Part shown: positions 2,143 to 32,345 of the stretch, in pieces
How positions within the stretch are numbered: the first letter of the stretch is position 1
Layout: each line of letters starts with the position of its first letter
IMG/VR virus record: IMGVR_UViG_3300032272_000003
Coordinates: 83,680-147,679 of that record
Length of the DNA: 64,000 nt
From: a virus
Direction: 5' to 3' (one strand)
The notes under the pieces: model-generated
What the model saw: the letters and a program-made list of their open reading frames with translations, nothing else
Told to the model about the DNA's origin: nothing
The model's database searches: none
Program-made: the position numbers and the translations under genes

Positions 2143-3362
2143 TGGCTGAGACTAGTATCTTCGAATACAATTTAGATAACAAACAGGTCATACGACTGTC
2201 TGCTGATGTAACCGATCCATTGTCAGTCCTAAGCATCTCCACGGTTGTCCTAGAAGAACAGCTTGGTTTAGGGTCTCCTATGCTATCAATCAACATGGTC
2301 GATGGCCTGGGTGATGTATTGGGTAAGTTCTTATTCGATCCCACAATGGTTTTTACACTATCATATGGCCTCACTGAAGACACTCTCCAGAATGCCACAT
2401 TCAAATTCGCCTCAAGCAAGTATGAGAATGCAAGTTCTGGGTCAAGCACAAATATATTAACGACCGTGAACTTCATAGGAAGCCACTGGGAAGGTTTTCT
2501 CAAGGATACCCATAGTAGGTCATGGACACAGAAGCGTTACTCCGCAGTGGCGAGCACGATAGCTGCTGAGATAGGATACACGGCTGATGTAGAAGAGACC
2601 AAAGACTTCCATAACGTTATACAACCTGACTGGACCAATTATCAATTGTTAAAGTGGATGGCAGAGAATGCTGTTAATACTAAAGACATCGGTGGGTACT
2701 TTGTGGGCCTTACCCTGGACAAGCGACTCATCTTCCGCCCTGTTGATCATTTAGCAGAGGTGGTACCAGCAGCGACCTACGTATTGAACGATTCCGATAA
2801 GAAACAATCCGATGATGAGTTGGATTACTTCAGAGCATTCCTTGTGAAGAACGATTATGTGTCGTCAGTAGCCAAGGCAGCATCCGGTGTTAAGTATATG
2901 TACTTCGATTTTGCCACTGGACAGTTTATTAATGGCGAGAGTAAGGTATCTACCTCCAAGCAGAGACAATTAAGTGATGTATTTTACATTGCCGATGAGC
3001 ATGAGAACGCTCCAAATAGATATTATGGTGGTCGTAATACTAATACTCCATCATTATCAGAGAATAATGTATTAAATTCGGCTAATTCAATTAATAGGGC
3101 AACCATTTCTATCGAGGGTAACACCTTTTTACATGCCGGTGACGTATTAAATATGATTATTCCATCTAATTTAGCACATATTGATAATGTAATTGAGGAA
3201 TATTACTCTGGCTACTGGTTAATTGAAAGAATTGCTCATGTATTTAATATGAATAATGGTAAAGTCGTGTCGAATATTACATTAATTCGCCCTGGTATCA
3301 ACTCACCTCTTATATCTGGCTATGTCAAGTCTACCAAAGGCAAGAAGATCACCGAATTATAA
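2142..3362 (+). CDS. Baseplate hub protein (gp27 / late-control-D / VgrG-N-like)
   Basis: 406 aa; RSW...S.VA..IA, IQP.WT..QLL.WMA, I.IEGN..L.AGD, YSGYWLIERIAH motifs; synteny. Confidence 0.75.
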   Translation: MAETSIFEYNLDNKQVIRLSADVTDPLSVLSISTVVLEEQLGLGSPMLSINMVDGLGDVLGKFLFDPTMVFTLSYGLTEDTLQNATFKFASSKYENASSGSSTNILTTVNFIGSHWEGFLKDTHSRSWTQKRYSAVASTIAAEIGYTADVEETKDFHNVIQPDWTNYQLLKWMAENAVNTKDIGGYFVGLTLDKRLIFRPVDHLAEVVPAATYVLNDSDKKQSDDELDYFRAFLVKNDYVSSVAKAASGVKYMYFDFATGQFINGESKVSTSKQRQLSDVFYIADEHENAPNRYYGGRNTNTPSLSENNVLNSANSINRATISIEGNTFLHAGDVLNMIIPSNLAHIDNVIEEYYSGYWLIERIAHVFNMNNGKVVSNITLIRPGINSPLISGYVKSTKGKKITEL

Positions 3363-3551
3363 TACCCACAGTGCTAGATGGAGTGCTGTGGCTTCCTCGG
3401 TCCTAAACCTTTTACGAATCCTCTCATATGCATTACTTGACTGACTGATAGCAGCCAACTGTACTTCTGGTTCAGGGTCATCCATATGACCAATGAAAGA
3501 CCAATGCTCTTCTATCAGCCCCAAACGATATTTGATATAGACCTGGCCCAT
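3357..3551 (-). CDS. Family A small paralog (truncated; DDPEPEVQLAAI repeat; ends LHLALWVL)
   Basis: Shared repeat and C-terminus; TGATG overlap with upstream gene. Confidence 0.7.
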   Translation of the reverse strand: MGQVYIKYRLGLIEEHWSFIGHMDDPEPEVQLAAISQSSNAYERIRKRFRTEEATALHLALWVL

Positions 3552-3787
3552 CACATCACCCACAATGCCATGTGTAAGTTTCTGGCTTCATCGGTTGGCT
3601 TCTTGATACATCTATACGCCCACCTGGACGTTTTAATAGCCGCCAACTGTATTGTCTCAGATGGATTTTCGATGTACATGATGTCAGTCCCTATAATGGA
3701 TATGTGATCCACTTTGTCATCTTCAGACAAACTCATTATCCACCGTGTTTTACTAGCACTATATGTAATATAATCCTCGGTAATCAT
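3551..3787 (-). CDS. Family A small paralog (ends LHMALWVM)
   Basis: IENPSETIQLAAI repeat; near-duplicate of 4059-4307. Confidence 0.8.
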   Translation of the reverse strand: MITEDYITYSASKTRWIMSLSEDDKVDHISIIGTDIMYIENPSETIQLAAIKTSRWAYRCIKKPTDEARNLHMALWVM

Positions 3788-4059
3788 AAGCACCACATCG
3801 CTTTATGTAGATTGGTCACTTCTTGTGAAGGATTCTTAATGTGGTCATAACAATCAGGATGATGAGCAACAGCATATAGCTGTACTTCCTCTAAGGGATT
3901 ATCAATAAGCCCGAAGAGGTGTATGTGATTCCTAACAATATATGACTGAGCATGTAGCGTCGGGTTGGGTATCATACCGATACTATAGGCCGACGTGGCA
4001 ATCAGAGTTAATTGCTGTGTTGTGCTTAGATTTGAATAATCATGTTCAGAATCGACCAT
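3784..4059 (-). CDS. Family A small paralog (ends LHKAMWCL)
   Basis: Three IxNP repeats. Confidence 0.8.
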   Translation of the reverse strand: MVDSEHDYSNLSTTQQLTLIATSAYSIGMIPNPTLHAQSYIVRNHIHLFGLIDNPLEEVQLYAVAHHPDCYDHIKNPSQEVTNLHKAMWCL

Positions 4060-4307
4060 CACATCACCCACAGTGCCATGTGTAAGACTTTGGCTTCATC
4101 AGTAGGATTATCAATACAGTCATAGGCCCACCTGGTCGTTTTAATAGCCGCCAACTGTACAGCCTCTGATGGATTATTAATATACATGATGTCAGACCCC
4201 TTACCGCTTATAGAATTTACAGCTAATAGTTGGTCTTCTTCACTCATAGCATTGTACATAGCAAATTGGTCACGCGCCCATTCTTCATAGTCAGTATCCA
4301 CTTCCAT
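4059..4307 (-). CDS. Family A small paralog (ends LHMALWVM)
   Basis: INNPSEAVQLAAI repeat. Confidence 0.8.
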   Translation of the reverse strand: MEVDTDYEEWARDQFAMYNAMSEEDQLLAVNSISGKGSDIMYINNPSEAVQLAAIKTTRWAYDCIDNPTDEAKVLHMALWVM

Positions 4308-4331
4308 ATTCTTATGCCTTTGTAATTTGTA

Positions 4332-4694
4332 TTATAAAGCCCACAAGGCTTTATCTAATATTACCACCTCACAACAAGGATTGTCAATACACTGGATGGC
4401 TAATGGACTGGCTATCACCGCCATGACCTGTAACTCATTGGGTGGGTTATCGATATAAAAGATAGAACATGGATGGGCCTTAACTGCAATCTCCATAGCC
4501 CAAATAGGTGGATTAGGGACATGCATGATAGCATATCCATTGTTCCTGAGAATCTGTACATTATCATCGCGTTTCATCCTCAAAATCATATGATTTTGTA
4601 TGGCATTGTGTATAGGAATAAAATCACATGTAAGATTACTCAGCCACTTGGCATCCTTACCGGCTAACAGATGCTTACGTACCTGACCTATCAT
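4332..4694 (-). CDS. Family A small paralog (ends LDKALWAL)
   Basis: Three xNP repeats; ATGA overlap. Confidence 0.8.
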   Translation of the reverse strand: MIGQVRKHLLAGKDAKWLSNLTCDFIPIHNAIQNHMILRMKRDDNVQILRNNGYAIMHVPNPPIWAMEIAVKAHPCSIFYIDNPPNELQVMAVIASPLAIQCIDNPCCEVVILDKALWAL

Positions 4695-5077
4695 AGCTTG
4701 TACAACGCTGTGTGTAGTGTGATTGCTTCTTCACATGGGTTCTTTATATAATGCAAGGCAATATCCATCTCAGTGACGGCTATCATCTGGGCAGCTTCAC
4801 ATGGGTTCTTTATAAGTGCAATACATAAGGGATTACCACGGACAGCCACAGTCTGCTCATGCTCTGTAGGATCGTCAAGATACATGATATAGTACCCATT
4901 AAACTTCAGAGCCACCGCAACCTCGTATGGATCGCCTACTGATACTTTAGGATTGTATTTGGCCTCCCAAGCTGCCCGATGCTCCCTAGACAACCGGCTG
5001 TCATTCGTAGAGCCTTTGGGCCTGCCCCTCTTTTGTTTAATATTATTAAACATCTTTATATCATTTTGATCGATCAT
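4691..5077 (-). CDS. Family A paralog with N-terminal AT-hook-like KRGRPKG (ends LHTALYKL)
   Basis: KRGRPK motif plus IKNPCE repeats. Confidence 0.8.
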   Translation of the reverse strand: MIDQNDIKMFNNIKQKRGRPKGSTNDSRLSREHRAAWEAKYNPKVSVGDPYEVAVALKFNGYYIMYLDDPTEHEQTVAVRGNPLCIALIKNPCEAAQMIAVTEMDIALHYIKNPCEEAITLHTALYKL

Positions 5078-5451
5078 AACTGATACAAAGCGTTGTATAA
5101 AAGGGTCGCTTCCTTGGTAGGCTTCTCAATATACCCATAGGCCGACTCACATTCTTCAATAGCCACCAGTTGGACTTTTTCACAAGGATCGGTCATGTAT
5201 TGGATGGCAGAGCCATTGGCATGGACAGCAACCAACATATCCCCTATGTGAGGTTTGACCAGGAACAGGTACATGAACCCGTTCTTATAGAGCCTTGTTC
5301 GTATTTCTTCATCGTGGTTCACGTCAGTATCCTCTAATGTAACAACACCATCGATCAGGTCAGCACTATACTTGACTCCTAACTTGGATGCGAACACAAT
5401 AGCCGCACTCTTTAATAGCATGATATCAAGCTCTTCATAAAAAGCTATCAT
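5074..5451 (-). CDS. Family A small paralog (ends LYNALYQL)
   Basis: TDPCEKVQLVAI repeat. Confidence 0.8.
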   Translation of the reverse strand: MIAFYEELDIMLLKSAAIVFASKLGVKYSADLIDGVVTLEDTDVNHDEEIRTRLYKNGFMYLFLVKPHIGDMLVAVHANGSAIQYMTDPCEKVQLVAIEECESAYGYIEKPTKEATLLYNALYQL

Positions 5452-5457
5452 TACTCA

Positions 5458-5541
5458 TTACCCACCCATCAGATCATCGTACATCATATATGCGATGAGA
5501 CCCATACTGATTGTTATACTAATCCATGATACTATAATCAT
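5458..5541 (-). CDS. 27-aa hydrophobic peptide MIIVSWISITISMGLIAYMMYDDLMGG
   Basis: Translated by hand; GGAGAAAGGA SD-like sequence upstream; fills the gap between families B and A. Confidence 0.55.
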   Translation of the reverse strand: MIIVSWISITISMGLIAYMMYDDLMGG

Positions 5542-5559
5542 TTTCCTTTCTCCAGTTAA

Positions 5560-5970
5560 TCATAGTATATTGGCTTTGTATTGTAATGTCAACTCTGGGT
5601 CAGAGTGAGTCCATACAACCTCTTCAATAAGATGACCGCCATCAGCATGGCAACATAATAACACACAGTAGATGACATCACCGCCTGCCTCTGTATACTC
5701 GTCAACATACCCCTCATCAATCCTTAAATGGAACAACATCTCCATGGCCAGTTGTTTATGATCCATGTCAGAGAAAAAGACCTCATCCAAATATACACTG
5801 AAAAGCTCTTCACCAGTGACAGTACGGTAATTCATATGAATATAATCGAGTGACTTCTCGTTCCATAAGCCAAAGAATGTATCAATCTTCTCAACCATAG
5901 GTATTAGATCATCGACAGTCATATCCGATACCCGCCTATGGACGGCGACTCTCTTCTGTTGATGCTTCAT
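5560..5970 (-). CDS. Family B paralog (ends VWTHSDPELTLQYKANIL)
   Basis: Conserved 18-aa C-terminus. Confidence 0.8.
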   Translation of the reverse strand: MKHQQKRVAVHRRVSDMTVDDLIPMVEKIDTFFGLWNEKSLDYIHMNYRTVTGEELFSVYLDEVFFSDMDHKQLAMEMLFHLRIDEGYVDEYTEAGGDVIYCVLLCCHADGGHLIEEVVWTHSDPELTLQYKANIL

Positions 5971-6344
5971 AGGATATTGGCCTTATATATTAACTCCATC
6001 TCAGGGTCAGGGTGAGTCCATACAACTTCGTCCTGTACCGCACACTCATAGATGCTGTTTGGGATTTTATTAGACATCCTTAAATATATTTTGTATATGG
6101 TACCGACATTCTTCTCGTCAACAATAAGCTCATCTAAAATTAATATTGATAAATGATGTATCGATTTTCTTATGTCTGGGTCATCCTTGGCGAAAAAGTG
6201 TGTACAGAACTTATCCTCATTATTAATTGATACTGTCTTTACCTGAACATTAAATAGGTTGGAACTGTGCTTGTTATAATAATCCCTTACTTTCTGAGCG
6301 ATAGGGTAAAAGTCTTCATATGAATATGATGATATATCACTCAT
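5967..6344 (-). CDS. Family B paralog (ends VWTHPDPEMELIYKANIL)
   Basis: Conserved C-terminus; coupled. Confidence 0.8.
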   Translation of the reverse strand: MSDISSYSYEDFYPIAQKVRDYYNKHSSNLFNVQVKTVSINNEDKFCTHFFAKDDPDIRKSIHHLSILILDELIVDEKNVGTIYKIYLRMSNKIPNSIYECAVQDEVVWTHPDPEMELIYKANIL

Positions 6345-6679
6345 AATATACTGGCCTTATAGTTAATCTCTACACCGGGGTCAGGATGAGTCCATATAGG
6401 TATATATGTACCTTCCGTTCCGCCTATTAACAATTGATAAATGTTATATGGTCTTATATCGATTTCGACCCTGGCGATCTCTTCTAATACACGTCTAATA
6501 TGGACAGTCATACTTTCCTCAAATCTATCAAAGAAGCAGATGTCGATAAAGTCACCATTCTCTAGGTAGGCATTAATAAAGACATATCCAATATCATCGG
6601 GCATCGCATCGGAGAGTTCATATATCCTTTCCATGATAGGTTTGAACTCAGCCGGGGTATACTCGGATATCCTTTTCAC
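6341..6679 (-). CDS. Family B paralog (ends IWTHPDPGVEINYKASIL)
   Basis: Conserved C-terminus; GTGA overlap. Confidence 0.8.
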   Translation of the reverse strand: MKRISEYTPAEFKPIMERIYELSDAMPDDIGYVFINAYLENGDFIDICFFDRFEESMTVHIRRVLEEIARVEIDIRPYNIYQLLIGGTEGTYIPIWTHPDPGVEINYKASIL

Positions 6680-6933
6680 CCCACATGCTCCCTGGTTGCC
6701 AGGACGGCTTTGATCTTATCCATGTATTCCTTCACCGGGCGACGTGGTACTTCAACATCGTTCTCCCAGTCAGAGCCAATATACTCATGGCACAGTTCAC
6801 AGCACCGTGGCCCACGGTAATGGCCTATAGCTGAGTGAACAGCCCTTGCACTCTTAAGCACATTCAGCAATCGTGGTGTGGATAGCTTATTCAATTGTTC
6901 TGCTGTTAGGTAGTTGAGATTACTTTTACTCAT
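6676..6933 (-). CDS. Hypothetical protein with CCxxC motif (not a member of the array families)
   Basis: Coupled ORF; KLSTPRLL...CCELC...LATREHV. Confidence 0.75.
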   Translation of the reverse strand: MSKSNLNYLTAEQLNKLSTPRLLNVLKSARAVHSAIGHYRGPRCCELCHEYIGSDWENDVEVPRRPVKEYMDKIKAVLATREHVG

Positions 6934-7328
6934 AATTTGTTTGCCTTATAGGTTAGCTTGACCTCTGGATCAGGATGGGTCCATACGTTACAATGTAGTA
7001 CTGTTTTCTCAGAAACAGCATCTACAGTATCTATAGTATCTGGATAATAGTAACATTCCATGGACAGTTTATAAATCATATCACCACTATATTCATCAAT
7101 CTCATTTAACATAATACTAGCCAAGTACTCAATTGTAGTATCATCAATATATTCATGATGGAAATAGTATAGTTGACACCTAACACCATCCACGGTATGA
7201 ACAATCACACGTCTACCATTTGTGTTACCTCTTTCCACCCACGCTTTGTGGCAATCAATCATTTGAGCCGCAATAGGTATAAACTCTTTGTGAGTCAGTT
7301 CTGATAATCGCTTGTATTCAGATGTCAT
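6930..7328 (-). CDS. Family B paralog (ends VWTHPDPEVKLTYKANKL)
   Basis: Conserved C-terminus; GGGAG SD upstream of ATG at 7328. Confidence 0.8.
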   Translation of the reverse strand: MTSEYKRLSELTHKEFIPIAAQMIDCHKAWVERGNTNGRRVIVHTVDGVRCQLYYFHHEYIDDTTIEYLASIMLNEIDEYSGDMIYKLSMECYYYPDTIDTVDAVSEKTVLHCNVWTHPDPEVKLTYKANKL

Positions 7329-7333
7329 AAATA
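7326..7333 (+). promoter_or_regulatory. T4-type late promoter CATAAATA
   Basis: 5 nt upstream of the gp5 ATG (7339). Confidence 0.7.
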
Positions 7334-7338
7334 CTCCC

Positions 7339-8154
7339 ATGGATGAAATGACATTTAACGGTAACTATAGAGCCATTGTAACAGATAACAACGATCCTTT
7401 GCAAGCAGGAAGGGTTAGGGTTCGGGTTATGCCCATGTTTAAGGATGTTGACGCTGACGCTCTGCCCTGGGCGGTACTGGCTGATGCCTTTATGGGATCG
7501 CCTAATGCCGGGTCAGTTAATATACCTGAGATAGGTGCCAACCTATTTGTATTCTTTGAGGCCGGTGACCACCGGTACCCAGTATACTTTGCCACTGCTC
7601 CATCCATACAGAACGGTACACCCGATCTGCCTACCCTCACCAGGGAAGCAGACGATTCAGTTACCGATATCAATACCAATGCTAAGAAAGGTGTAGGGAC
7701 AGCCTCGGGTAGCTCCTGGGATGAGCCTGGTAGCGCCTATGCAGCCGTGTACCCAGAGAATAAGATTTGGAAGACCACCGATGGCCTATTGATAGAATTG
7801 GACGATACAGACGGTCAGCTTCGCTTCCACATATACCATCCAGCCGGTACCCGTATGGAGATCGATAAGGATGGCAACGAGGTTAACCACACACAGGGTA
7901 ATCGATTTACTGTTGTCGTCGGTGATGATAAAGTTTATATCACAGGGAATGGCGACATTACAGTAGATGGGGACATGGGTATTAAGGTGGGTGGTGATAC
8001 CAAGATAGATGTTACCGGTAATGCTGATATTATTGCTGCTGGGGATGCCTCAGTAGAGAGTGTTAACTCAACTGTTAAGGGGTCAGCGAGTGTTACTATA
8101 GATGGTGGCCCTGCTGTCACTATCACTGGTGGATTAATTAGTCTTAATCCTTAA
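7339..8154 (+). CDS. Baseplate central spike, T4 gp5/VgrG-like (OB fold plus beta-helix, no lysozyme domain)
   Basis: YRAIVTDNNDPLQAGRVRVRV...LPWA, P.IG...VFFE.GD..YP; C-terminal VxGD repeats. Confidence 0.9.
   Translation: MDEMTFNGNYRAIVTDNNDPLQAGRVRVRVMPMFKDVDADALPWAVLADAFMGSPNAGSVNIPEIGANLFVFFEAGDHRYPVYFATAPSIQNGTPDLPTLTREADDSVTDINTNAKKGVGTASGSSWDEPGSAYAAVYPENKIWKTTDGLLIELDDTDGQLRFHIYHPAGTRMEIDKDGNEVNHTQGNRFTVVVGDDKVYITGNGDITVDGDMGIKVGGDTKIDVTGNADIIAAGDASVESVNSTVKGSASVTIDGGPAVTITGGLISLNP
7375..7404 (-). promoter_or_regulatory. Candidate sigma70 promoter TTGCAA-18-(TG)TACAAT driving array 1
   Basis: Read from the - strand inside the gp5 5' end; has an extended -10. Confidence 0.5.
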
Positions 8155-8492
8155 AGCAATACCATTGCTTTGTATTCAAGTATCTGTGGATGGCTCTCAT
8201 CGTACCATACTGTCTTATAATCATCTGTTTGGTGGTCATCAAACCCTATAGCAACTGCAACTGATATTGTCTTGTCAGACCATAATCTATCAAACCCAGA
8301 TTTTAACGATTCATTATTATGACAGTACCCATACCCATACCATACATGATCGATGGTATCGAACCGGACAGCAATATAAAGCTCCAATGGGTAAGTGTTT
8401 ATAACACTCTTGAGGTGCTTCCTGACACTCTCAATAGCAGCATTCTTCTTTCTGAGATTATGGATGACTTCCCAATATGCTTTATTATTCAT
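8151..8492 (-). CDS. Family C paralog (ends VWYDESHPQILEYKAMVLL)
   Basis: Conserved W..H..YKA..L tail. Confidence 0.8.
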   Translation of the reverse strand: MNNKAYWEVIHNLRKKNAAIESVRKHLKSVINTYPLELYIAVRFDTIDHVWYGYGYCHNNESLKSGFDRLWSDKTISVAVAIGFDDHQTDDYKTVWYDESHPQILEYKAMVLL

Positions 8493-8495
8493 ATC

Positions 8496-8816
8496 TTAGA
8501 ATACCTCGTTTGCAATAAACCCTAAAGTGTCTGGATGATCATCATTAAACCAGATATGCTTGATTACCCTATAATCATTAATGTCAATATATTCAATCGA
8601 CACCCCTAATGTGTTGCAACAAATCTTCTGTTCCAGTAATTTAGTATTACCCATGTCATTAAGAGGATTAATTGTGTAGGGTATATTGTATAAATGTACC
8701 CAACGCCCGAACGAAAATCCAAAAACACGTAAATGTCTATTCCTGTGTGGTGATATACCACGGACACTCTCGACCATCTTCTCATTAATTTCAATTGACA
8801 TTCGTTTATAATTCAT
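8496..8816 (-). CDS. Family C paralog (ends IWFNDDHPDTLGFIANEVF)
   Basis: Conserved tail. Confidence 0.8.
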   Translation of the reverse strand: MNYKRMSIEINEKMVESVRGISPHRNRHLRVFGFSFGRWVHLYNIPYTINPLNDMGNTKLLEQKICCNTLGVSIEYIDINDYRVIKHIWFNDDHPDTLGFIANEVF

Positions 8817-8866
8817 TTAGACCTTTTAATCCTTAAACAAATCTCCCAATACCGTTCCCTACTCAT
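8813..8866 (-). CDS. 17-aa bridging mini-ORF MSRERYWEICLRIKRSK
   Basis: ATGA overlaps on both sides; resembles the N-terminus of 8151-8492. Confidence 0.55.
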   Translation of the reverse strand: MSRERYWEICLRIKRSK

Positions 8867-9222
8867 AATTGATCTGCCTTATACTGTAAATACTCTGGAT
8901 CATCTAGGTTCTCCCATACAACCTTACGGTGCATAAACATCTTTTCATCTACATACTGAATGGCAATAGCAATCGAAAAACCCATCAAATATGTATATAG
9001 CTCAATTAAGTTAACGGTACCATATTCTGGTGACGGTACCAAGGTACTACGTAGCCACCCATATTGTGTGGTGTACGTATAAAGCCTAAATGAATTGACT
9101 GAATTGACTGAATTGACTGATTTAAATTGTGTACGGGGGTTATGGGTTAGTATACCCATACTCATACTCACCAGGTCATCAACATTACCAACCCGCTTAA
9201 CGATATCATTCATCATCGTCAT
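8863..9222 (-). CDS. Family C paralog (ends VWENLDDPEYLQYKADQL)
   Basis: Conserved tail; internal SVN repeat. Confidence 0.8.
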   Translation of the reverse strand: MTMMNDIVKRVGNVDDLVSMSMGILTHNPRTQFKSVNSVNSVNSFRLYTYTTQYGWLRSTLVPSPEYGTVNLIELYTYLMGFSIAIAIQYVDEKMFMHRKVVWENLDDPEYLQYKADQL

Positions 9223-9608
9223 AACACTGTATCCGCTATGAACTCAGGGTAGTACGAGCTATCCTTATTAATCCACACCTCATGAGCTACCCCATGCTTA
9301 CTACCATTGGTAGAGGTGACGATCATGATCGATACTATATCATGATGTATTAGATGACACCCAACATACCATTCAACCCTCGTCGCCCATTCCCTACGTT
9401 GCTCTAATGTACTCTTATAGCTCACATCAGAAGCATATCTGAACGATTCAATCCTATTCCATCGTGATAGATTATCAACATCCGATGGGGCATACCATCC
9501 AACAACCCATGCATCATACGCCTGATAAGCTCCCATGTTCTCAGAGAGTCCCCATAGCTTGGATGATACTGTATTGGCTATCTGGTTGGCTAACATACTA
9601 TTCATCAT
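9219..9608 (-). CDS. Family C paralog (ends VWINKDSSYYPEFIADTVL)
   Basis: Conserved tail. Confidence 0.8.
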   Translation of the reverse strand: MMNSMLANQIANTVSSKLWGLSENMGAYQAYDAWVVGWYAPSDVDNLSRWNRIESFRYASDVSYKSTLEQRREWATRVEWYVGCHLIHHDIVSIMIVTSTNGSKHGVAHEVWINKDSSYYPEFIADTVL

Positions 9609-9847
9609 AACACATACAACGCTTTATGTAACATTATCGCTTCTTCTGTTGGGTTCTTAATATACCGGATCATCATATTACTCACTGCTACCAATCTTAA
9701 TTGATAATCATTAGGGATACATGTGATCTTCCTGACAGTATGAACGGCATTCTCCATGCATTTGATCCTCCAGATTGGATACGAACTATACTTCTGTTCC
9801 AATTGAGATAGTATACCATCGAGATGATGTTTATCGAGAGGACTCAT
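9605..9847 (-). CDS. Family A' paralog (ends IKNPTEEAIMLHKALYVL)
   Basis: IPxxxQLRxV plus family A tail. Confidence 0.8.
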   Translation of the reverse strand: MSPLDKHHLDGILSQLEQKYSSYPIWRIKCMENAVHTVRKITCIPNDYQLRLVAVSNMMIRYIKNPTEEAIMLHKALYVL

Positions 9848-10086
9848 AGCTCATACAACGCTTTATGTAACAACGTTGCCTCCGGGCATGGGTTATTAAG
9901 GTATTGGTGTAGATTGTGACACGCCACCAATCTTAATTGATAATACATAGGAATATCAATTATTCTCTTAACAGTTCTAACGGCATTATGCCTGTAATAA
10001 ACCCCTACCAGTGGATGAGATGATTTATACATCGTTTCCAATTGGTATAGGACAGTATCAAGATGATGTTTATCGATGGGTGTCAT
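9844..10086 (-). CDS. Family A' paralog (ends LHKALYEL)
   Basis: Close paralog of 9605-9847. Confidence 0.8.
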   Translation of the reverse strand: MTPIDKHHLDTVLYQLETMYKSSHPLVGVYYRHNAVRTVKRIIDIPMYYQLRLVACHNLHQYLNNPCPEATLLHKALYEL

Positions 10087-10343
10087 AATCGCCACAACGC
10101 TTTATGAGTCAGTTTGGCTTCCTCGGTAGGATTATTAATGTAACTAATCATGTAGGAACCTATGGCCACCGTTCTTAATTGTAAATCTTCGGGGATATTA
10201 CATTTACCGGAAAGACACTTCACTAAATCTGATATCATCCGATACGGGTACCTCTCATTGGGGGTCATAGTATTAAGCTTGATATCTATGCTGTCGAGTA
10301 TCCTACGTAGGTTATGTTCTTCGATGGGTGTTATAGGTTTCAT
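10083..10343 (-). CDS. Family A' paralog (ends THKALWRL)
   Basis: Conserved tail. Confidence 0.8.
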   Translation of the reverse strand: MKPITPIEEHNLRRILDSIDIKLNTMTPNERYPYRMISDLVKCLSGKCNIPEDLQLRTVAIGSYMISYINNPTEEAKLTHKALWRL

Positions 10344-10591
10344 AGCTCATACAATGCATTTTGAATCAGCACTGCCTCTTCGCATGGTTCATCTATATAC
10401 CGGATCATATATACAGCACATTCTACAAGTCTAACCTGTATGTCATCGGGGATACCACCACCATAGATTAACAACACGATGCTCCGTATCGACATCCTAT
10501 GGGATATCTTGACAACCTCACGTTCAGCACTATCATGCTTATTCAATAGATACTCGATTTCCTTAAGCTTCTCGGTAAGCTCCTGACTCAT
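10340..10591 (-). CDS. Family A' paralog (ends IQNALYEL)
   Basis: Conserved tail. Confidence 0.8.
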   Translation of the reverse strand: MSQELTEKLKEIEYLLNKHDSAEREVVKISHRMSIRSIVLLIYGGGIPDDIQVRLVECAVYMIRYIDEPCEEAVLIQNALYEL

Positions 10592-10842
10592 AACCCGTGT
10601 ATGGCCTTATGGAGGAATGTGACATCTTTAGTAGGCTGTATCAGGTGTGCCCAGGATGTAGAGGCTAGTTCGACGGCCCTGATCTGTAAATCCACTGGTA
10701 GGGGTTTATTACAATCCTCAAGTTTATACCGCAGATTTACACGGGAAAAGAACGTTTTCATGCCTCTGTTGTTGTCGGTAAGGAGTGCCCTCTCAAGCCG
10801 ACGACATGCTCTCTTTACTTTGCTCGCTTCTCTATTAGCCAT
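10588..10842 (-). CDS. Family A' paralog (ends LHKAIHGL)
   Basis: Conserved tail. Confidence 0.8.
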   Translation of the reverse strand: MANREASKVKRACRRLERALLTDNNRGMKTFFSRVNLRYKLEDCNKPLPVDLQIRAVELASTSWAHLIQPTKDVTFLHKAIHGL

Positions 10843-10845
10843 TAT

Positions 10846-11106
10846 CTATGACTCCCATAGTGCTTTGTGCATCAAAGTAGCCGCTGGTGTTGGATCAGTA
10901 ATATGTCCATACAGGTACGGGCTACACCTTATCATTTGTAATTGAACCTCTTCAGGGATAACCTCTATCCCTCTAACGATTGTAATGATCTGAATCTGAA
11001 TCTGAATCTGAAAAGCTGTTTGAAACGATTCTACCTTATCTTCATCACATGTGTCAATCAACATTTGCATGCTGGTCATCAAATCCATGAAATCGTTTTT
11101 CTTCAC
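10846..11106 (-). CDS. Family A' paralog (ends MHKALWES)
   Basis: Conserved tail; QI repeat. Confidence 0.8.
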   Translation of the reverse strand: MKKNDFMDLMTSMQMLIDTCDEDKVESFQTAFQIQIQIQIITIVRGIEVIPEEVQLQMIRCSPYLYGHITDPTPAATLMHKALWES

Positions 11107-11510
11107 CCCTTAAGGTTCTCCATCTTATATTCTGTATAGTGGCTATGGCCAGTGTTCTCCCATAGGATAGCACTGTCTGTCTGGGCGACCGGATGATTCA
11201 CGTCCAGGCCGGTGGCGTCCAGGAGGGTGATCTTAACAGCAACAGCACATGACCCATTGAATATCCCCTGTAGCAATGCACAAGTAATATCATGGTAAAT
11301 ATAATCCTCATAAGAGTCGGCATCGATTTTCACCCACCCCAGGCCATGGTGGTATGCCTCTATCAGGAACCCTATCTGTTCTGGGCATTTATAATCCCGT
11401 CTAAGGAATATCGTAACGGCATCGGTGATGTCCTTGCACAACTGTACCTGGGAATCCAACACTTCCTGAATCTTCATCTGTTCGTCAATCTGTTTCTGTT
11501 CTTCTGTCAT
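11103..11510 (-). CDS. Family C paralog (ILWENTGHSHYTEYKMENLKG)
   Basis: GW, AVK and tail motifs. Confidence 0.8.
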   Translation of the reverse strand: MTEEQKQIDEQMKIQEVLDSQVQLCKDITDAVTIFLRRDYKCPEQIGFLIEAYHHGLGWVKIDADSYEDYIYHDITCALLQGIFNGSCAVAVKITLLDATGLDVNHPVAQTDSAILWENTGHSHYTEYKMENLKG

Positions 11511-11836
11511 AGGTTCTCTCCTGCTATGTATTGGTAATAATCTGGATGGGCTTCATCAACCCATATAACCTCACTAACCTCACTCACTTTACTGTTGGTC
11601 GGGTGTTGGTACCAGTACCACCCGATCTTAAAGCCCACAGGGCTTTTCGTATTACTTAGTTGTAAAATCCTATCTCTCAGGATAGGATGGTAAATATTAC
11701 ACTGTGACCTCTCTATGAGCATGGTACTCCGCCATTTACAATCAGAATAGTACATCACCTCAAAGATAGAGGAACGCTTTTCACCAATCGATTTAATGAT
11801 ATCACTGGCTATACCTACGGCAACATGATGTTTCAT
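11507..11836 (-). CDS. Family C paralog (VIWVDEAHPDYYQYIAGENL)
   Basis: Conserved tail. Confidence 0.8.
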   Translation of the reverse strand: MKHHVAVGIASDIIKSIGEKRSSIFEVMYYSDCKWRSTMLIERSQCNIYHPILRDRILQLSNTKSPVGFKIGWYWYQHPTNSKVSEVSEVIWVDEAHPDYYQYIAGENL

Positions 11837-12171
11837 AGCTTCTCTCCTGCTACATATTCAAGATATTGAGGATGGTCCACATCCTCCCATAATATTACCT
11901 CAGATAATAATGTACCAGTCATACGATTAATATTACCAAACCCCCCACCATGTATTTGTAACTTAAAGCATAATGGGTTCTTTAATGCGAATGCTGTCTT
12001 GATCCTAGTCTTTAATATATCTTCATAAATAACCGCTGTTGGACCCTTAAATTTAGAACAACTCTCCCATCCCCAGTATAGGTCATAATGCATAAGTACA
12101 CATGTCCCTTCAGAAGCCACAGCAATTGCTATTATCTTATCTCTTAATTTAACAATACCTGCATTATTCAT
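11833..12171 (-). CDS. Family C paralog (ILWEDVDHPQYLEYVAGEKL)
   Basis: Conserved tail. Confidence 0.8.
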   Translation of the reverse strand: MNNAGIVKLRDKIIAIAVASEGTCVLMHYDLYWGWESCSKFKGPTAVIYEDILKTRIKTAFALKNPLCFKLQIHGGGFGNINRMTGTLLSEVILWEDVDHPQYLEYVAGEKL

Positions 12172-12539
12172 AACCTCTCCCTCGCTACGTATTCGATAAA
12201 ATCTGGATTATATGTATCCTCCCATATAATAACCCCATCTAAATCTAATAAAGGATGTTTGTGTGCTGGTCTGTGTATTGATCTGGAGGGATAACGCATT
12301 TGTATTTGTAACTTGAATATTATAGGAGAGTGCGTGACAAATGATGTCTGTATCCTACCCCTTACCATATCATGATAGGTTCTCACTCTCTTCTCCCCGG
12401 TAGTAAAAAATATACAACAGTCCGCCCATTCAAGACGTTTAGAGTCATAAAACGTGATCACACATCTATGATCATCGTCAAAACTACCAGACATCAGTAT
12501 TATCTCATTCGTTAATTCATTAATACCTGCATTATTCAT
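12168..12539 (-). CDS. Family C paralog (IIWEDTYNPDFIEYVARERL)
   Basis: Conserved tail; MNNAGI start shared with neighbour. Confidence 0.8.
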   Translation of the reverse strand: MNNAGINELTNEIILMSGSFDDDHRCVITFYDSKRLEWADCCIFFTTGEKRVRTYHDMVRGRIQTSFVTHSPIIFKLQIQMRYPSRSIHRPAHKHPLLDLDGVIIWEDTYNPDFIEYVARERL

Positions 12540-12928
12540 AACATCATCCCAGCAATAAAGCCCAGGTAGTCTGTATGATCTGTATCAGCCCACACCATTA
12601 TCAATCCTTCTTTGGGCGGATGCTCATTATAATTACCCCGACCCCAATCCCAACTACCTGACCCCATCCAGACCATATGATCCCAATCAGATATTATCGC
12701 TATACCTATAAGGCTTGGGTAGGGTAGATACCACGTTAACGTATTCCTGATATTGTTTCTCTCTATTGTGCCAACCCCAGCATCAAACTCAATATTAGGA
12801 ATAAAATGATCCTTAAAACAATACACCAGTCGATAGAAACTATTATTAGTATCGAAGGCATCCCGTTGGGTGGTCTTGGTCTTCTTAATAATCATATCCG
12901 TGACCTCTCCCACGTCTCTACTGATCAT
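12536..12928 (-). CDS. Family C paralog (VWADTDHTDYLGFIAGMML)
   Basis: Conserved tail. Confidence 0.8.
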   Translation of the reverse strand: MISRDVGEVTDMIIKKTKTTQRDAFDTNNSFYRLVYCFKDHFIPNIEFDAGVGTIERNNIRNTLTWYLPYPSLIGIAIISDWDHMVWMGSGSWDWGRGNYNEHPPKEGLIMVWADTDHTDYLGFIAGMML

Positions 12929-13251
12929 AACATATCGTCCGATTTATATTCGAGGTAATATTCATGCTCTTTATTCTCCCATATTAACACATTAGGGTCA
13001 ACTAACACATCACCAGTGAACATTTTGTCATCAAATACGAGCTTAAGGGCAACAACGTTGTCATTAAAGGCGTCATTAATCTTACGACGAATCATTCGAT
13101 AGTCGCCCAACATGGGTATGCACTTGAAGTATCTGTTCCAGCCCCTCTCAGGGATGTATCCGAATAAAGCCATACTATAATACTGCTCACCCATGTTTCG
13201 TGCCACCTTGGTAATGTTACCAGAGAGGGTATTACTCGTATTATCAGTCAT
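12925..13251 (-). CDS. Family C paralog (IWENKEHEYYLEYKSDDML)
   Basis: Conserved tail. Confidence 0.8.
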   Translation of the reverse strand: MTDNTSNTLSGNITKVARNMGEQYYSMALFGYIPERGWNRYFKCIPMLGDYRMIRRKINDAFNDNVVALKLVFDDKMFTGDVLVDPNVLIWENKEHEYYLEYKSDDML

Positions 13252-13586
13252 AACATATCGTCCGCTTTGTATTCCAGGTATCTACTGTGCTCTTCATCCT
13301 CCCATAATAACATACTAGGGTCAGGGGCATCAATCATTCCAACAGCCCATTGTTGAGAGAATATTAGCTTAACAGCTACTATACTATGAATGTTTCCATA
13401 ATAACCAATGTATCTTTTAAATTGACCATATCTATCCTTAGCATGTCGGGATGCGAAGGTCATATAATATGACCACCCTTCACTATCATGATAGACCCAT
13501 AACCCGCACGAGATATACCATGTCGAGTATTCCAGGGAATTGTTTACGATCATACTTGCCAACTTCGATATGGTATCGGCATTCAT
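13248..13586 (-). CDS. Family C paralog (LWEDEEHSRYLEYKADDML)
   Basis: Conserved tail. Confidence 0.8.
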   Translation of the reverse strand: MNADTISKLASMIVNNSLEYSTWYISCGLWVYHDSEGWSYYMTFASRHAKDRYGQFKRYIGYYGNIHSIVAVKLIFSQQWAVGMIDAPDPSMLLWEDEEHSRYLEYKADDML

Positions 13587-13924
13587 AACATCACATCAGC
13601 AACAAATACATCATAATCCTTATGTTCTTTATTCTGCCATAGGATAATCTTTGATCTTGGTGCAGCAAATGGGGCAATGGCAATGGCAATTATATCCTCA
13701 TCCACACCCACCCCAAATACCTTCAGACTCTCACTGATCCTGAGTACCTGACAACGGGTTGCATCCATATCGAACCCTACTAACCATGACCCCATGGCGG
13801 AGTTAATACTGGCAGCATGATAGGCATACATACTGTAGTACCGGTAATAAGTAGTACCGTTACCCCTCTTATGGAGATGCTTAGCGGCTTCTGCTATCTT
13901 CTCAGCCAGGACATCTACATTCAC
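13583..13924 (-). CDS. Family C paralog (LWQNKEHKDYDVFVADVML)
   Basis: Conserved tail. Confidence 0.8.
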   Translation of the reverse strand: MNVDVLAEKIAEAAKHLHKRGNGTTYYRYYSMYAYHAASINSAMGSWLVGFDMDATRCQVLRISESLKVFGVGVDEDIIAIAIAPFAAPRSKIILWQNKEHKDYDVFVADVML

Positions 13925-14277
13925 AACATCACCTCAGCTATAAATACATCGTAATCGATATGCTCTTTATTCTCCCACATGATAATCTTATCATTGCCCT
14001 TGTCACTCATACTTACAAGGGCAATAGCAATTACCTTATCATCATCAATGTAATCAGCGATATTACGTTGTATATGGAATACCTGGCTCTGACTGGCTAC
14101 AATAAGAAGTCCTCCACCGAACCAACCACTATTGGCTAGGTTGAAGTATCCAGCTTTATATACCACTACCCGAAACTTCCAGTGCTGACCACCAGACTGC
14201 CGGTAAATTGCCTTCGCAGTATCGGAGATTTTCATGGCCAGGCCATGTACATTAACACCTTTTACGAAATAGTTCAT
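13921..14277 (-). CDS. Family C paralog (MWENKEHIDYDVFIAEVML)
   Basis: Conserved tail. Confidence 0.8.
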   Translation of the reverse strand: MNYFVKGVNVHGLAMKISDTAKAIYRQSGGQHWKFRVVVYKAGYFNLANSGWFGGGLLIVASQSQVFHIQRNIADYIDDDKVIAIALVSMSDKGNDKIIMWENKEHIDYDVFIAEVML

Positions 14278-14633
14278 AGGCTCTCGCTCGCAATATAATC
14301 AAGGTACTCAGGATGATCCTCGTTCTTCCATATGATTTGTTCATATATTTGGCCATTGTAATTGAAAGCAATCGCTTTAACAGCAACACACTTCCAATCT
14401 TCAATCCAAATACGTAAAGCACTTCTTAAGTCAAGCCTATCTGTGGTCATTGCAAAATCATTGCTAATGATGCTAATACCAAATCCAGAATACCATATTT
14501 CATTACTATATGGTGACACCCTGACACCAACTACACTATTTAATTCACATAGTTGTTCGTAACTATTTAATTCACATAGTTGTTCGTAAAGAGTATTCTC
14601 AATACTCTCGATTGTTCTATTATCACTACTCAT
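14274..14633 (-). CDS. Family C paralog (IWKNEDHPEYLDYIASESL)
   Basis: Conserved tail; 27-bp internal tandem duplication. Confidence 0.8.
   Translation of the reverse strand: MSSDNRTIESIENTLYEQLCELNSYEQLCELNSVVGVRVSPYSNEIWYSGFGISIISNDFAMTTDRLDLRSALRIWIEDWKCVAVKAIAFNYNGQIYEQIIWKNEDHPEYLDYIASESL
14535..14588. repeat. Perfect 27-bp tandem duplication (YEQLCELNS x2)
   Basis: actatttaattcacatagttgttcgta twice. Confidence 0.95.
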
Positions 14634-14671
14634 AACATCTTATCCACCTTTTCTTGTATATGAGAATCCAT
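14630..14671 (-). CDS. 13-aa leader mini-ORF MDSHIQEKVDKML
   Basis: ATG 6 nt after the -10 box; TGA overlaps the ATG of the first array gene. Confidence 0.5.
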   Translation of the reverse strand: MDSHIQEKVDKML

Positions 14672-14677
14672 GGCAAT

Positions 14678-14707
14678 ATATTAACCTAATAAATAAGGGT
14701 ATGTCAA
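14678..14707 (-). promoter_or_regulatory. Candidate sigma70 early promoter TTGACA-18-TAATAT driving array 2
   Basis: Perfect -35 inside the first codons of gp25. Confidence 0.6.
14688..14695 (+). promoter_or_regulatory. T4-type late promoter AATAAATA
   Basis: 5 nt upstream of the gp25 ATG. Confidence 0.7.
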
Positions 14708-15090
14708 GACAAACTAAATACAGTGATATCGAATTCCAAATGAAACGCGATGTCGGTGGTGAGATTATCATCGTCCATGGTGAAGATGCTATTGGACAAT
14801 CGATCAAGAACATCCTCTCTACCTACCCAGGCGAGAGAATCATGAATCCCGAGTTCGGTAGTAGGATGAGAGACTTCCTATTCGAGCCTATGAACATCAT
14901 CACAGTTGAACGTATGGAGCTGGAGATCAGACGTGCACTCACTCAGTGGGAAGATCGTGTCAATATCATCCAGATCAAGGTCAAAGATGACCTGGACAAC
15001 AACTACTACGACATCACAGTGATGTACAAGATCAAGACTACTGGCCATACCGCTTTCTTCTCAGGGAAAGTCAGACCAGCAAGCGACTAA
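14701..15090 (+). CDS. Baseplate wedge protein gp25-like (GPW_gp25)
   Basis: AIGQSIKNILSTYPGERIMNPEFGS...LFEP...WEDRV. Confidence 0.95.
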   Translation: MSRQTKYSDIEFQMKRDVGGEIIIVHGEDAIGQSIKNILSTYPGERIMNPEFGSRMRDFLFEPMNIITVERMELEIRRALTQWEDRVNIIQIKVKDDLDNNYYDITVMYKIKTTGHTAFFSGKVRPASD

Positions 15091-21966: not shown

Positions 21967-23349
21967 ATGACAACACCAACCGACTTAAAAGTACCTCTAA
22001 CCCCTATCACCATAGGGGAAGCTGGTATACCTATCGTCGCTAACAGACAACCTGCTGAATTGGAGGCTAATATTGATAACATTATTGCCTACCTTGATGG
22101 TAACTCTGTGAGTGCATTTGACTGGGATGAGGTAGCCACAACTGGCATCTCATTTGCTTATAAGTCTGGTAGGTTCCGTAAAGGACATTCATCTGTACTT
22201 ATTATTACAGGTACCACGGATTTGACTGGTGGAGATGTCCTTCATTATATTTTTGTAGACCAAACCACAGATGCAATTATTAACAATACTACTGGATTTC
22301 CTATCGGTAGTATTCCTCTATATGAGATCAGCGTATCCGGGGGTGTTATATCCGTAGTCACAGACGTTAGGGCATACTTTAATACATACCAGGCATCAAC
22401 CCTACCGGTTGATGATTCTGGCTTATCTTTTGTTGCTGATAATGTTCAAACAGCAATCGATGAAATAGATACAGTTATTGTCGCTAATACTGGAGACATT
22501 TCCAATCTTCAGACAAATAAATTGGATATAGCCGGACATACTATTAGCAGAGTAATGGTCACCGATGGTTCTGGTAACATAACAACATCAGCAATAACAA
22601 CAACAAAGCTCGATTATTTGGGTGATGTAACAAGTCTTATCCAGGCCCAATTGAATAGTAAAGAACCGACTATTACTGGTGCTGCCACGACTATTACTGG
22701 TGCCGACCTAACAGCAAATAGAGTAGTAATATCAAGTGGTGTTGGTAAAATATCAATAAGCACAGTAACCACAACAGAACTTGGATGGCTCACTGGTGTA
22801 TCAAGCAATATTCAAACACAATTGAATGGTAAATCTTCTGTTAGTCATAATCACGATAGTACATATCTCAGACTATCAGGAGGATCACAAAGCGTCTCAG
22901 CGACAACAATTTTTACATCTGATAATTTATACGTCGGTACTGATGGTGGTGGTGATTCTGATATGTATTTCTATGCTGATTTTAGCAACACTTGGCGAAC
23001 CCTTCGTTGGGATAATAGTTCTAATGAATTTCAAGTAGAAGACAGTGGCAGCAATATGAGAACATTAATACACTCTGGTAATATTGATACGTATGTTAGT
23101 ATTCCAGCTGTTGGGTCTGTTGGGTCTTACGCTCTATTAATGAACTTCGAAGTTGGTGACTATACTGTCTCTGCTGGTTCAACAATGGCCGGTTCACGAT
23201 TAAGATACTGGGGTGCTTCTGCTGATGATTTTGGTACTGTTGATAGTAATGGATATGGTACTACACCATCAGGAACATGGAGAGTCATGGGTAGGGTTAG
23301 AACATATGGTAACCGGTTTGGTTCTACTTTATTTTTGAGGATTAGTTAA
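21967..23349 (+). CDS. Tail fibre protein 2
   Basis: Paralogous N-terminus; L.GV.S.IQ.QLN.K repeats; GTWRVMG...LFLRIS tip. Confidence 0.85.
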   Translation: MTTPTDLKVPLTPITIGEAGIPIVANRQPAELEANIDNIIAYLDGNSVSAFDWDEVATTGISFAYKSGRFRKGHSSVLIITGTTDLTGGDVLHYIFVDQTTDAIINNTTGFPIGSIPLYEISVSGGVISVVTDVRAYFNTYQASTLPVDDSGLSFVADNVQTAIDEIDTVIVANTGDISNLQTNKLDIAGHTISRVMVTDGSGNITTSAITTTKLDYLGDVTSLIQAQLNSKEPTITGAATTITGADLTANRVVISSGVGKISISTVTTTELGWLTGVSSNIQTQLNGKSSVSHNHDSTYLRLSGGSQSVSATTIFTSDNLYVGTDGGGDSDMYFYADFSNTWRTLRWDNSSNEFQVEDSGSNMRTLIHSGNIDTYVSIPAVGSVGSYALLMNFEVGDYTVSAGSTMAGSRLRYWGASADDFGTVDSNGYGTTPSGTWRVMGRVRTYGNRFGSTLFLRIS

Positions 23350-29349: not shown

Positions 29350-29373
29350 TAAATACAGTAATAAGGAATATAA

Positions 29374-29930: not shown

Positions 29931-29942
29931 AAGGAGAATAAC

Positions 29943-30479: not shown

Positions 30480-30482
30480 GAG

Positions 30483-32117: not shown

Positions 32118-32123
32118 CGATTA

Positions 32124-32160
32124 AGAATGAGCCGATTATATCCTGTATTCGGCTCATTCT
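32124..32160. terminator. 12-bp inverted repeat, probable terminator after the lysis cassette
   Basis: AGAATGAGCCGA...TCGGCTCATTCT. Confidence 0.7.
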
Positions 32161-32339: not shown

Positions 32340-32345
32340 ATTATC

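Follow-up and report, generated by a model that had tools for sequence, protein, structure and literature searches.

Two antisense arrays of small divergent paralogs within the baseplate gene run of an uncultured phage

Why should a phage devote 10,455 nt, or 7% of its contig, to short antisense genes set inside a run of baseplate genes? The question is raised by a 64,000-nt stretch of viral DNA (the window), which is the last 64 kb of the 147,679-bp IMG/VR contig IMGVR_UViG_3300032272_000003 and in which two arrays of small minus-strand genes flank gp5, the gene of a baseplate spike. We found that the 32 array genes consist of 31 paralogs and one singleton, g11. The reading that we favour, with roughly an even chance of being right given the sequence features described below, is that the arrays are two lineage-specific hyperplastic insertions, grown by tandem duplication, whose paralogs would serve as a panel of host-directed binders.

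Array layout and position among the baseplate genes

The listing of open reading frames (ORFs) gives uninterrupted minus-strand chains at 3357-7340 and 8151-14633, with a single plus-strand gene, gp5, between them. With start codons read from the sequence (gp5 ATG at 7339, g12 start at 7328), the first chain holds 12 genes in 3357-7328 and the second 20 genes in 8151-14633. All-against-all BLASTP grouped them into families A (13 genes), B (4) and C (13), plus g16. Leave-one-out hidden Markov models (HMMs) searched against 1564 contig ORFs recovered all 31 members by their own family (E 4e-22 to 2.6e-3); g16 is counted in family C on this evidence, bringing that family to 14. The same families emerged from the DNA: a repeat finder blind to genes returned three junction-anchored repeat families, D1 (nine copies, corresponding to A), D2 (nine copies, C) and D5 (four copies, B), each opening with the reverse complement of the stop/start overlap. 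For 28 of the 32 array genes, independent gene calls from a second assembly of this phage concur. The closest paralog pairs by BLASTP (g17/g18, g25/g26, g28/g29, g30/g31 and g02/g04) are adjacent or near-adjacent, and the arrays form a tandem multigene family in the sense of at least three adjacent paralogs that have a common HMM and are most similar to their nearest neighbours.

The ORF chains, BLASTP and the leave-one-out HMMs thus confirm the original prediction of two antisense arrays with 31 small paralogs splitting the baseplate genes, together with its order for array 2 (ten C, six A', four C) and its estimate of about 10 kb, for which the measured span is given above. The members did not map to unrelated families lacking a shared HMM. 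The predicted end at 14671 needed correction: the chain extends to 14633, and the 57-amino-acid (aa) ORF at 14640-14813, which overlaps the gp25 start, is probably not a gene and was left uncounted. The singleton g11 encodes a basic protein of 85 aa with a C-C-x-x-C-H motif and overlaps both of its neighbours by 4 nt (Table 1).

The baseplate genes of related phages show what the arrays interrupt. Our relatives were 19 IMG/VR contigs found via gp5 (29-51% identity) and four closer metagenomic contigs (gp5 50-57%). All 23 keep the order p1070, p1780, gp27-like, gp5, gp25, gp6 on one strand, and the gp27-like orthologue is always just upstream of gp5 (20 related contigs). None of the 23 has an antisense array or minus-strand genes at the two junctions; the extra DNA found there in some of them carries plus-strand genes only, including, ahead of gp25 in some relatives, genes for PAAR-like (judged by eye) and fibre-like proteins. 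Searching the 23 relatives with the A, B and C HMMs gave nothing significant, the best C-HMM match (E 0.002) falling in the frame of a tail-tube gene. Across 50,697 phage records, near-identical DNA was not found, and a protein search with a C member gave no match. The module had been predicted to be usually contiguous, and it is so in most relatives; identical fixed array content among them, an outcome that would have spoken against an expandable gene set, was not seen. We therefore conclude from the 23-relative comparison that the baseplate module is normally one-stranded and that the arrays are peculiar to this phage lineage.

Five relatives encode a conserved protein of 232-316 aa between gp27-like and gp5, and array 1 occupies the exact site expected for this middle gene. 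A tblastn search for it across the whole contig gave no match.

Table 1. Coordinates of the arrays, their promoter-like sites and neighbouring features (window positions unless a contig is named)
Feature	Coordinates	Strand	Basis or remark
Family A, 13 genes	g01-g07 in array 1, g17-g22 in array 2	-	BLASTP and leave-one-out HMM
Family B, 4 genes	g08, g09, g10, g12	-	BLASTP and leave-one-out HMM
Family C, 14 genes	g13-g16, g23-g32	-	BLASTP and leave-one-out HMM
Array 1, A run, 7 genes	3357-5451	-	Leave-one-out HMM E 1e-9 to 4e-22; repeat family D1
g01; g02; g03; g04	3357-3551; 3551-3787; 3784-4059; 4059-4307	-	Family A
g05; g06; g07	4332-4694; 4691-5077; 5074-5451	-	Family A
Array 1, B run	5560-7328	-	BLASTP cluster; leave-one-out E 4e-8 to 7e-18
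g08; g09; g10; g12	5560-5970 (alternative start 5922); 5967-6344; 6341-6679; 6930-7328	-	Family B
Singleton g11	6676-6933	-	Embedded in B run, unrelated; weak match to phrog_9405, E 4e-4
Array 2, distal C run, 4 genes	8151-9608	-	Leave-one-out HMM E 1e-10 to 2.6e-3; weakest C members
g13; g14; g15; g16	8151-8492; 8496-8816; 8863-9222; 9219-9608	-	Family C
Array 2, A' run, 6 genes	9605-11106	-	BLASTP ties to array-1 A genes; leave-one-out E 1.5e-5 to 4e-20
g17; g18; g19	9605-9847; 9844-10095; 10083-10343	-	Family A'
g20; g21; g22	10340-10591; 10588-10842; 10846-11106	-	Family A'
Array 2, proximal C run, 10 genes	11103-14633	-	BLASTP, leave-one-out HMM, repeat family D2
g23; g24; g25; g26; g27	11103-11510; 11507-11836; 11833-12171; 12168-12539; 12536-12928	-	Family C
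g28; g29; g30; g31; g32	12925-13251; 13248-13586; 13583-13924; 13921-14277; 14274-14633	-	Family C
Sigma70-like match TTGACA-18-TAATAT	14678-14707	-	Array 2 head; -35 box overlaps gp25 start codon
Sigma70-like match TTGACA-17-TATACT	5564-5592	-	11/12; just before the 108-nt gap preceding g07
Sigma70-like match TTGACA-18-TAATAT with TG	4358-4387	-	Just before the 24-nt gap preceding g04
Two overlapping sigma70-like matches, TTGTTA-16-TATAGT and TTGCAA-18-TACAAT	7364-7404	-	9/12 each; in the first codons of gp5, upstream of g12
Late-promoter-like box CATAAATA	7326-7333	+	5 nt before gp5 ATG; contains g12 start codon on the other strand
Late-promoter-like box AATAAATA	14688-14695	+	5 nt before gp25 ATG
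gp27-like baseplate hub gene, 406 aa	2142-3362	+	phrog_350 'tail protein', E 5e-19; conserved position
gp5-type spike gene, 271 aa	7339-8154	+	PF04717, E 8e-11; phrog_430, E 2e-52
gp25 baseplate wedge / sheath initiator gene	14701-15090	+	PF04965, E 8e-21; late operon resumes here
Conserved middle gene in relatives	L025:9258-10001; L027:9303-10001; L028:4602-5474; L004:2685-3635; L005:9090-9956		Between gp27-like and gp5
Genes with B/C-like or A-like tails	Contig 67977-70251 (window -15703 to -13428), 22125-22529, 34105-34443	-	Sub-threshold

Divergence, folds and tails of the array proteins

Column entropy in family C drops from 2.8 bits in helices 1 and 2 of the predicted structure to about 2.0 bits across strands 3 and 4, and reaches 1.75 bits for helix 3. 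The hydrophobic periodicity persists along the whole domain, and in B and C the first two helices and the loop that joins strand 3 to strand 4 vary greatly. The B/C domain has a constant core, made of the sheet and the last helix, with diversified helix surfaces. This fall in entropy toward the C-terminus bears out the predicted pattern of divergent N-terminal and central parts followed by about 20 conserved residues. Over the last 18 codons, amino-acid identity is 47% in A, 69% in B and 31% in C.

Synonymous sites are saturated in all families, tails included (proportion of differing synonymous sites, pS, 0.72-0.80). When the six closest pairs were pooled, the synonymous rate (dS) was 1.17 in the body and 1.14 in the tail, and the ratio of non-synonymous to synonymous rates (dN/dS) was 0.54 for the body against 0.20 for the last 22 codons; gene bodies ranged from 0.36 to 0.83. 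Selection on the protein therefore keeps the tails conserved. Recent gene conversion was considered as a cause and rejected, tail synonymous sites being as saturated as those elsewhere. The G+C content at third codon positions (GC3) of the array genes equals that of the structural genes. We conclude that the array genes encode real, selected proteins and that the duplicates are old. The paralogs had been called hyper-divergent: their divergence is indeed strong, but at least part of it reflects age, given the saturated synonymous sites and a dN/dS below 1.

Gene g32 contains an exact 27-nt in-frame tandem duplication (window 14535-14588) that adds nine residues, and short in-frame repeats occur in g15 (S-V-N three times near 9100) and g22 (Q-I four times near 10980). 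These are signs of slippage continuing in the array genes. Such repeats would be expected if the arrays were near-neutral filler, that is, ORFans produced by slippage and unequal crossing-over at a recombination-prone spot, whose single copies have no specific function. The high dN/dS of the gene bodies points the same way, as does the extra DNA that some relatives hold at the same two junctions, where insertions are tolerated. Yet 32 consecutive frames have stayed intact despite saturated synonymous sites, dN/dS is below 1 everywhere and lowest in the tails, the hydrophobic core pattern is conserved and yields a confident structural model, and the tight packing of the genes has been preserved with its overlaps. 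We consider filler an improbable explanation.

Continuing change is also seen in a strain variant from another sample (ENA ERZ27251186 contig, 1434 nt), which is 99.3% identical to window 4210-5643. Its six non-synonymous changes are confined to codons 1-18 of g07 and g04. The four synonymous changes lie outside these N-terminal stretches, three within the bodies of g05 and g06, and the repeat parts show synonymous changes only; the sample is very small.

Divergent tandem copies whose ends are conserved also recall a silent cassette library, in which the copies would be donors that recombine into an expression site through those ends, in the style of antigenic variation. However, nucleotide identity in the tails is 49-72% with synonymous sites saturated, so no usable recombination tracts exist; every copy has its own start codon and an upstream purine-rich stretch, and neither a recombinase nor a reverse transcriptase is encoded nearby. 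This makes a cassette library hardly credible.

Families B and C together comprise 18 genes with a domain of about 110-135 aa. The family B profile, searched against 5.8 billion (5.8e9) protein clusters, found its four members only, and it had no match in a scan of IMG/VR. The family C HMM, searched against 1.84 billion (1.84e9) representatives of about 15 billion proteins, returned 14 matches, all from this phage. None of the 14 C members matched Pfam or PHROGs, and g08, the one B member scanned, had no Pfam match and only a weak one in PHROGs (phrog_14507, E 0.007). In the databases searched, B and C thus appear as orphan families confined to this phage.

Despite the lack of relatives, AlphaFold2 gave a confident model from the 14 C paralogs alone (predicted local distance difference test, pLDDT, 91.4; predicted TM-score, pTM, 0.83), with the element order helix, strand, strand, helix, strand, strand, helix. 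The model of B, built from four sequences, has a pLDDT of 64.6 and the identical element order. The weak PDB neighbour lists of the two models are near-identical (3jct_K, 8esq_K, 8fkp_SL, 6msp, L1, RbcS), the joint alignment of B and C is collinear, and in both families a Trp ends strand 4 and is followed by [H/D]-P and then a Y-K-A helix. Because topology and weak structural neighbours are common to both, B and C are probably homologous and form one superfamily, as far as predicted models can tell. Profile-profile comparison of A with B and of A with C gave no match. The counts of the three families originally proposed stand at 13, 4 and 14, but two superfamilies fit the arrays better.

No close structural relative emerged. 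Foldseek with the C model against PDB and BFVD gave nothing at E <= 0.001, the best match being a Mimivirus protein of unknown function (E 3.9e-3). A wide search with VIA-align, whose top neighbours were Brix-type, L1, RbcS, the little finger of Y-polymerases and a designed protein, reached a best Z of 7.4 for C and 7.1 for B, within the tool's stated noise range. Feature searches of the ESM Atlas with g29 and g09 yielded nothing usable, and its shape search gave TM <= 0.56, with RbcS-like proteins and other small sandwiches. Since every structural match is at noise level, we claim no fold family and take no functional lead from the fold.

The proteins of family A are of another kind. They are 64-128 aa long and consist of one to three units, with a variable N-terminus, zero to two internal 22-aa repeats of the type NP-x-E-x-x-Q-L-x-A-V and a distinct conserved terminal unit; g06 contains a 20-nt exact repeat at a distance of 66 nt. 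Seven of the 13 members match phrog_5925 (best E 1e-10) and six match phrog_17056. The only two outside relatives are metagenomic repeat proteins of the NP-S-E-x-VQLAA type (NPxE-VQLAAV), and among the 50,697 phage records only weak repeat matches were found, in SCTP-2, Atu_ph07, AgentSmith and one metagenomic phage. The gathering score of Pfam DUF4116 (PF13475), 24.9 bits, was not reached: a single member of the 13 matches, with 14.6 bits (E 0.025), and scanning the contig in six frames gave 7.9 bits, below threshold. The family A profile does match an intermediate, P0012 (E 1e-7), which itself scores 23.1 bits against DUF4116, just below the cut-off. From these profile matches, family A is best described as short helical repeat proteins of the DUF4116-like or phrog_5925 type.

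The conserved tails had been read as a C-terminal handle common to all families, and the sequences do not support this part of the original prediction. Tail HMMs built from the last 22 residues find all members of their own family (E 1e-17 to 5e-4) and none of the others across A, B and C (best E 1.4). A loose pattern, aromatic/His-K-A-x(2-4)-end, usually with a final Leu, occurs in 22 of the 31 members and in 10 of about 1020 other ORFs; it was chosen post hoc. In the C model, the tail corresponds to strand 4 and helix 3 (pLDDT 86-96); in A it is the terminal unit of the helical repeat. A family-specific conserved functional patch in the tails is possible, given the conserved polar residues of the C tail.

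These results bear on an adaptor or tag model, in which the conserved C-terminus would be a portable handle docking all paralogs, of whatever fold, on one partner (a protease, a secretion or packaging device, or a phage enzyme) while the variable part takes the targets. In every family, conservation peaks over the last 18-22 residues, polar residues of the C tail (E96, N97, H100 and E105) are conserved beside hydrophobic ones, and the loose pattern is enriched among the members. But the tail HMMs are family-specific, the spacing from Pro to K-A differs in all three families, the C tail lies within the confident fold and is probably no detachable appendage, and the A tail is a repeat unit. Moreover, the regular expression was post hoc, B and C are probably homologous so that only two families are independent, and a part of the last four to five codons also serves the next gene, providing its ribosome-binding site and the overlap with its start. 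Taken together, we judge the adaptor model unlikely.

A joint reading combines the handle with the favoured binder panel. In such a two-scaffold binder library, the helix surfaces would capture different host defence or housekeeping proteins and a conserved module would couple all targets to one phage or host machine. The module would be strand 4 and the last helix in B/C and the terminal repeat unit in A; we consider this combined reading improbable. If it were true, phages would have a modular substrate-adaptor system unlike any described in them, built in part on an orphan fold found only in this lineage.

Outside the window, the contig carries other small minus-strand genes whose products have B/C-like tails (W-x-x-[ED]...Y-K-A-x-x-L), and one with an A-like tail (Table 1). 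All are sub-threshold, the best reaching E 0.004 against a joint B+C HMM. The superfamilies may thus have dispersed, older members elsewhere on the contig.

Expression signals and the favoured reading

Coupled translation of the array genes had been predicted, and the junctions agree: 22 of the 30 are 4-nt ATGA/GTGA overlaps, two are TGATG and only three are gaps of more than 20 nt. The purine-rich last codons of a gene often serve as the ribosome-binding site of the next. Promoters of the arrays were called from consensus matches only, in a sigma70-like scan. Three of the six best minus-strand matches lie at sites where a promoter would be needed, namely before g32, at the 108-nt gap and at the 24-nt gap, a placement whose probability by chance we roughly estimate at 5e-4. 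A AAGGTGGA ribosome-binding site stands between the promoter match at the head of array 2 and g32. The prediction that the arrays have their own promoters is therefore supported in front of array 2 and just ahead of two of the three gaps within the arrays, whereas array 1 has only weaker matches at its head, in the start of gp5. At both array heads, a divergent sigma70-like promoter match overlaps the start of the late gene.

The late genes are marked differently. The arrangement NATAAATA-N5-ATG occurs directly ahead of gp5, gp25 and the minus-strand terminase gene (window 7326-7341, 14688-14703 and 36044-36057), so the late genes downstream of the arrays each have their own late promoter. With the ATG 5 nt after the box, the mRNAs of gp5, gp25 and terminase may be leaderless, as the sequence suggests. 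A motif scan for TAAATA-N5-ATG gave five matches in the window, every one on the plus strand, and the late-promoter core ATAAATA occurs there 18 times on the plus strand and three times on the minus strand. On the arrays' strand, no late-promoter motif was found in the 10.5 kb of arrays.

This last result matters for the view that the paralogs belong to the virion, as accessory proteins or as ejected ones, and reach the host with the tail tip as its cargo or as decorations of the baseplate. The location of the arrays around the spike gene, and location only, would point to such a role. The array genes lie on the strand opposite to all neighbouring tail genes and lack the box that gp5, gp25 and terminase each possess, the arrays are absent from every relative with the same baseplate genes, and no signal or cleavage motif was recognised in the proteins. 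A role in the virion is very unlikely.

Under the favoured reading of a host-directed binder panel, the insertions at the gp27-like/gp5 and gp5/gp25 junctions would each have grown by tandem gene duplication into a multigene family. The genes would be transcribed early or in the middle of infection from the sigma70-like promoters, as four or five translationally coupled units. Each paralog would be a small soluble binding protein with a constant scaffold and a diversified surface, and together they would form a panel directed at host (or competitor) targets that vary, serving host takeover or counter-defence. Unequal recombination at the conserved gene junctions would make the panel grow and shrink. 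The effector or anti-defence role first proposed for the genes is plausible.

Several results weigh against this reading. The minus strand also carries the genes for gp23, gp20 and terminase, so strand is no proxy for timing; we rejected the argument that minus strand means early for this reason, and non-late timing therefore rests on the promoter consensus matches only. The dN/dS never exceeds 1, and diversifying (positive) selection is not demonstrated. Profile-profile comparison of B with C was not significant (E 0.09), with only the last 18 columns aligned, and no sequence or structural relative of known function was found for the array proteins.

Phage genomes are compact and rarely keep many paralogs. 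Thirty-one old, intact copies of two small scaffolds, occupying 10.5 kb within a gene run that stays one-stranded and without antisense genes in every relative sampled, argue that copy diversity itself is selected, and if it is, the arrays would be to phages what multigene families are to large eukaryotic viruses. Should the copies be counter-defence or takeover factors, they would offer up to 31 new inhibitors and a model of how phages diversify such factors. The B/C domain, which has no relatives in about 15 billion proteins yet a confident C model obtained from paralogs, is an accessible target for structural and functional work.

The source phage and comparison with known systems

The contig also encodes gp23, gp20, terminase, sheath, tube, a B-family polymerase, a DnaB-like helicase and an intein-containing ribonucleotide reductase. 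Because it bears these genes, we classify the source, from its sequence, as an uncultured T4-like myovirus. Its closest cultured phages are two Alishewanella phages, with a gp6 identity of only 29%. Within the baseplate run, the stop codon of the gp27-like gene overlaps that of the last array-1 gene; gp5, the sole late gene between the arrays, has an OB domain and beta-helix repeats and is without a lysozyme domain; and a gp6-like gene comes next after gp25. The large subunit of the ribonucleotide reductase (1344 aa, contig 29031-33065, minus strand) is split by a LAGLIDADG-domain intein. For the B-family DNA polymerase, the ORF (contig 43817-45520, minus strand) encodes only 567 aa, and its domain match covers only the first 189 of 453 profile positions; the polymerase is possibly split, as in some T4-like phages.

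CheckV estimated the completeness of the contig at 43%. The first 1139 nt of the contig and its last 1154 nt (window 62847-64000) are 92% identical, extend to both ends and carry a pair of 138- and 145-aa paralogs. At about 147 kb, the contig may thus be close to the whole genome, which would then be circularly permuted or carry terminal repeats that have diverged; the CheckV value would in that case be wrong. We did not apply the label jumbo phage, because the contig ends are 92% identical and all hallmark modules are present.

The arrays can be compared with the hyperplastic regions (HPRs) of T4-type phages, where small variable genes lie between core blocks, in promoter/stem-loop (PeSL) cassettes (Arbiol et al. 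2010, PMC2839356; Comeau et al. 2014, PMC4122927). Like HPRs, the arrays hold small variable genes of unknown function between core blocks, absent or different in relatives, with early-type promoters; as a variable gene block between core genes, for which the 23 related contigs have no such genes at the junctions, they fit the description. Whereas HPR genes are typically mutually unrelated and separated by PeSLs, 31 of the 32 genes here are paralogs of two superfamilies, joined by 4-nt overlaps without intergenic cassettes, and two of the three internal gaps are preceded by a promoter-like site. PeSL cassettes around individual array genes were not found, apart from one weak stem-loop and promoter pair at 5654-5564. 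The arrays also differ from HPRs in being inserted within the run of baseplate hub and wedge genes itself.

Lineage-specific expansions are known in large phages, such as the approximately 35 zinc-ribbon copies of Bacillus phage G (Iyer et al. 2021, PMC7824862). In both cases dozens of copies of one small domain, of unknown role, occur in a single phage lineage; the arrays differ in their domains (an orphan alpha/beta fold and a helical repeat) and in being strictly tandem, coupled and inside a structural module. The repeat type of family A is common to DUF4116, phrog_5925 and phrog_17056 proteins, but the known DUF4116-type proteins, which occur in giant viruses too, are single long proteins of about 216-444 aa and not arrays (SCTP-2 gp45, Atu_ph07 AUZ95001), in contrast to the tandem short genes here.

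Outside phages, the multigene families (MGF) of African swine fever virus (ASFV) and the K3L 'genomic accordions' of poxviruses are tandem divergent paralogs shaped by unequal recombination, with roles in host range or immune evasion. They may offer the closest working analogy to the arrays, although they belong to eukaryotic viruses, involve unrelated proteins and have a demonstrated function, where the arrays are known from sequence. Polyimmunity loci of polymorphic toxin systems reportedly consist of tandem divergent immunity paralogs such as SUKH, as described by Zhang et al. in 2012. They resemble the arrays in that small divergent paralogs with a common scaffold stand in tandem, each presumed to neutralise a partner of its own, but they lie in bacterial genomes beside toxin genes, and their proteins have no sequence or significant structural similarity to the array proteins. 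DUF600 chains matched the C model with a Foldseek probability of 0.06-0.09 only.

T4 internal proteins, with an N-terminal targeting or cleavage motif and late expression, are a poor match for the array proteins, whose N-termini are the least conserved part and whose genes have no late-promoter motif. We found no described equivalent of the arrays in the literature. In kind, they combine T4-type hyperplastic regions with the lineage-specific expansions of phages; in degree, they are unusual.

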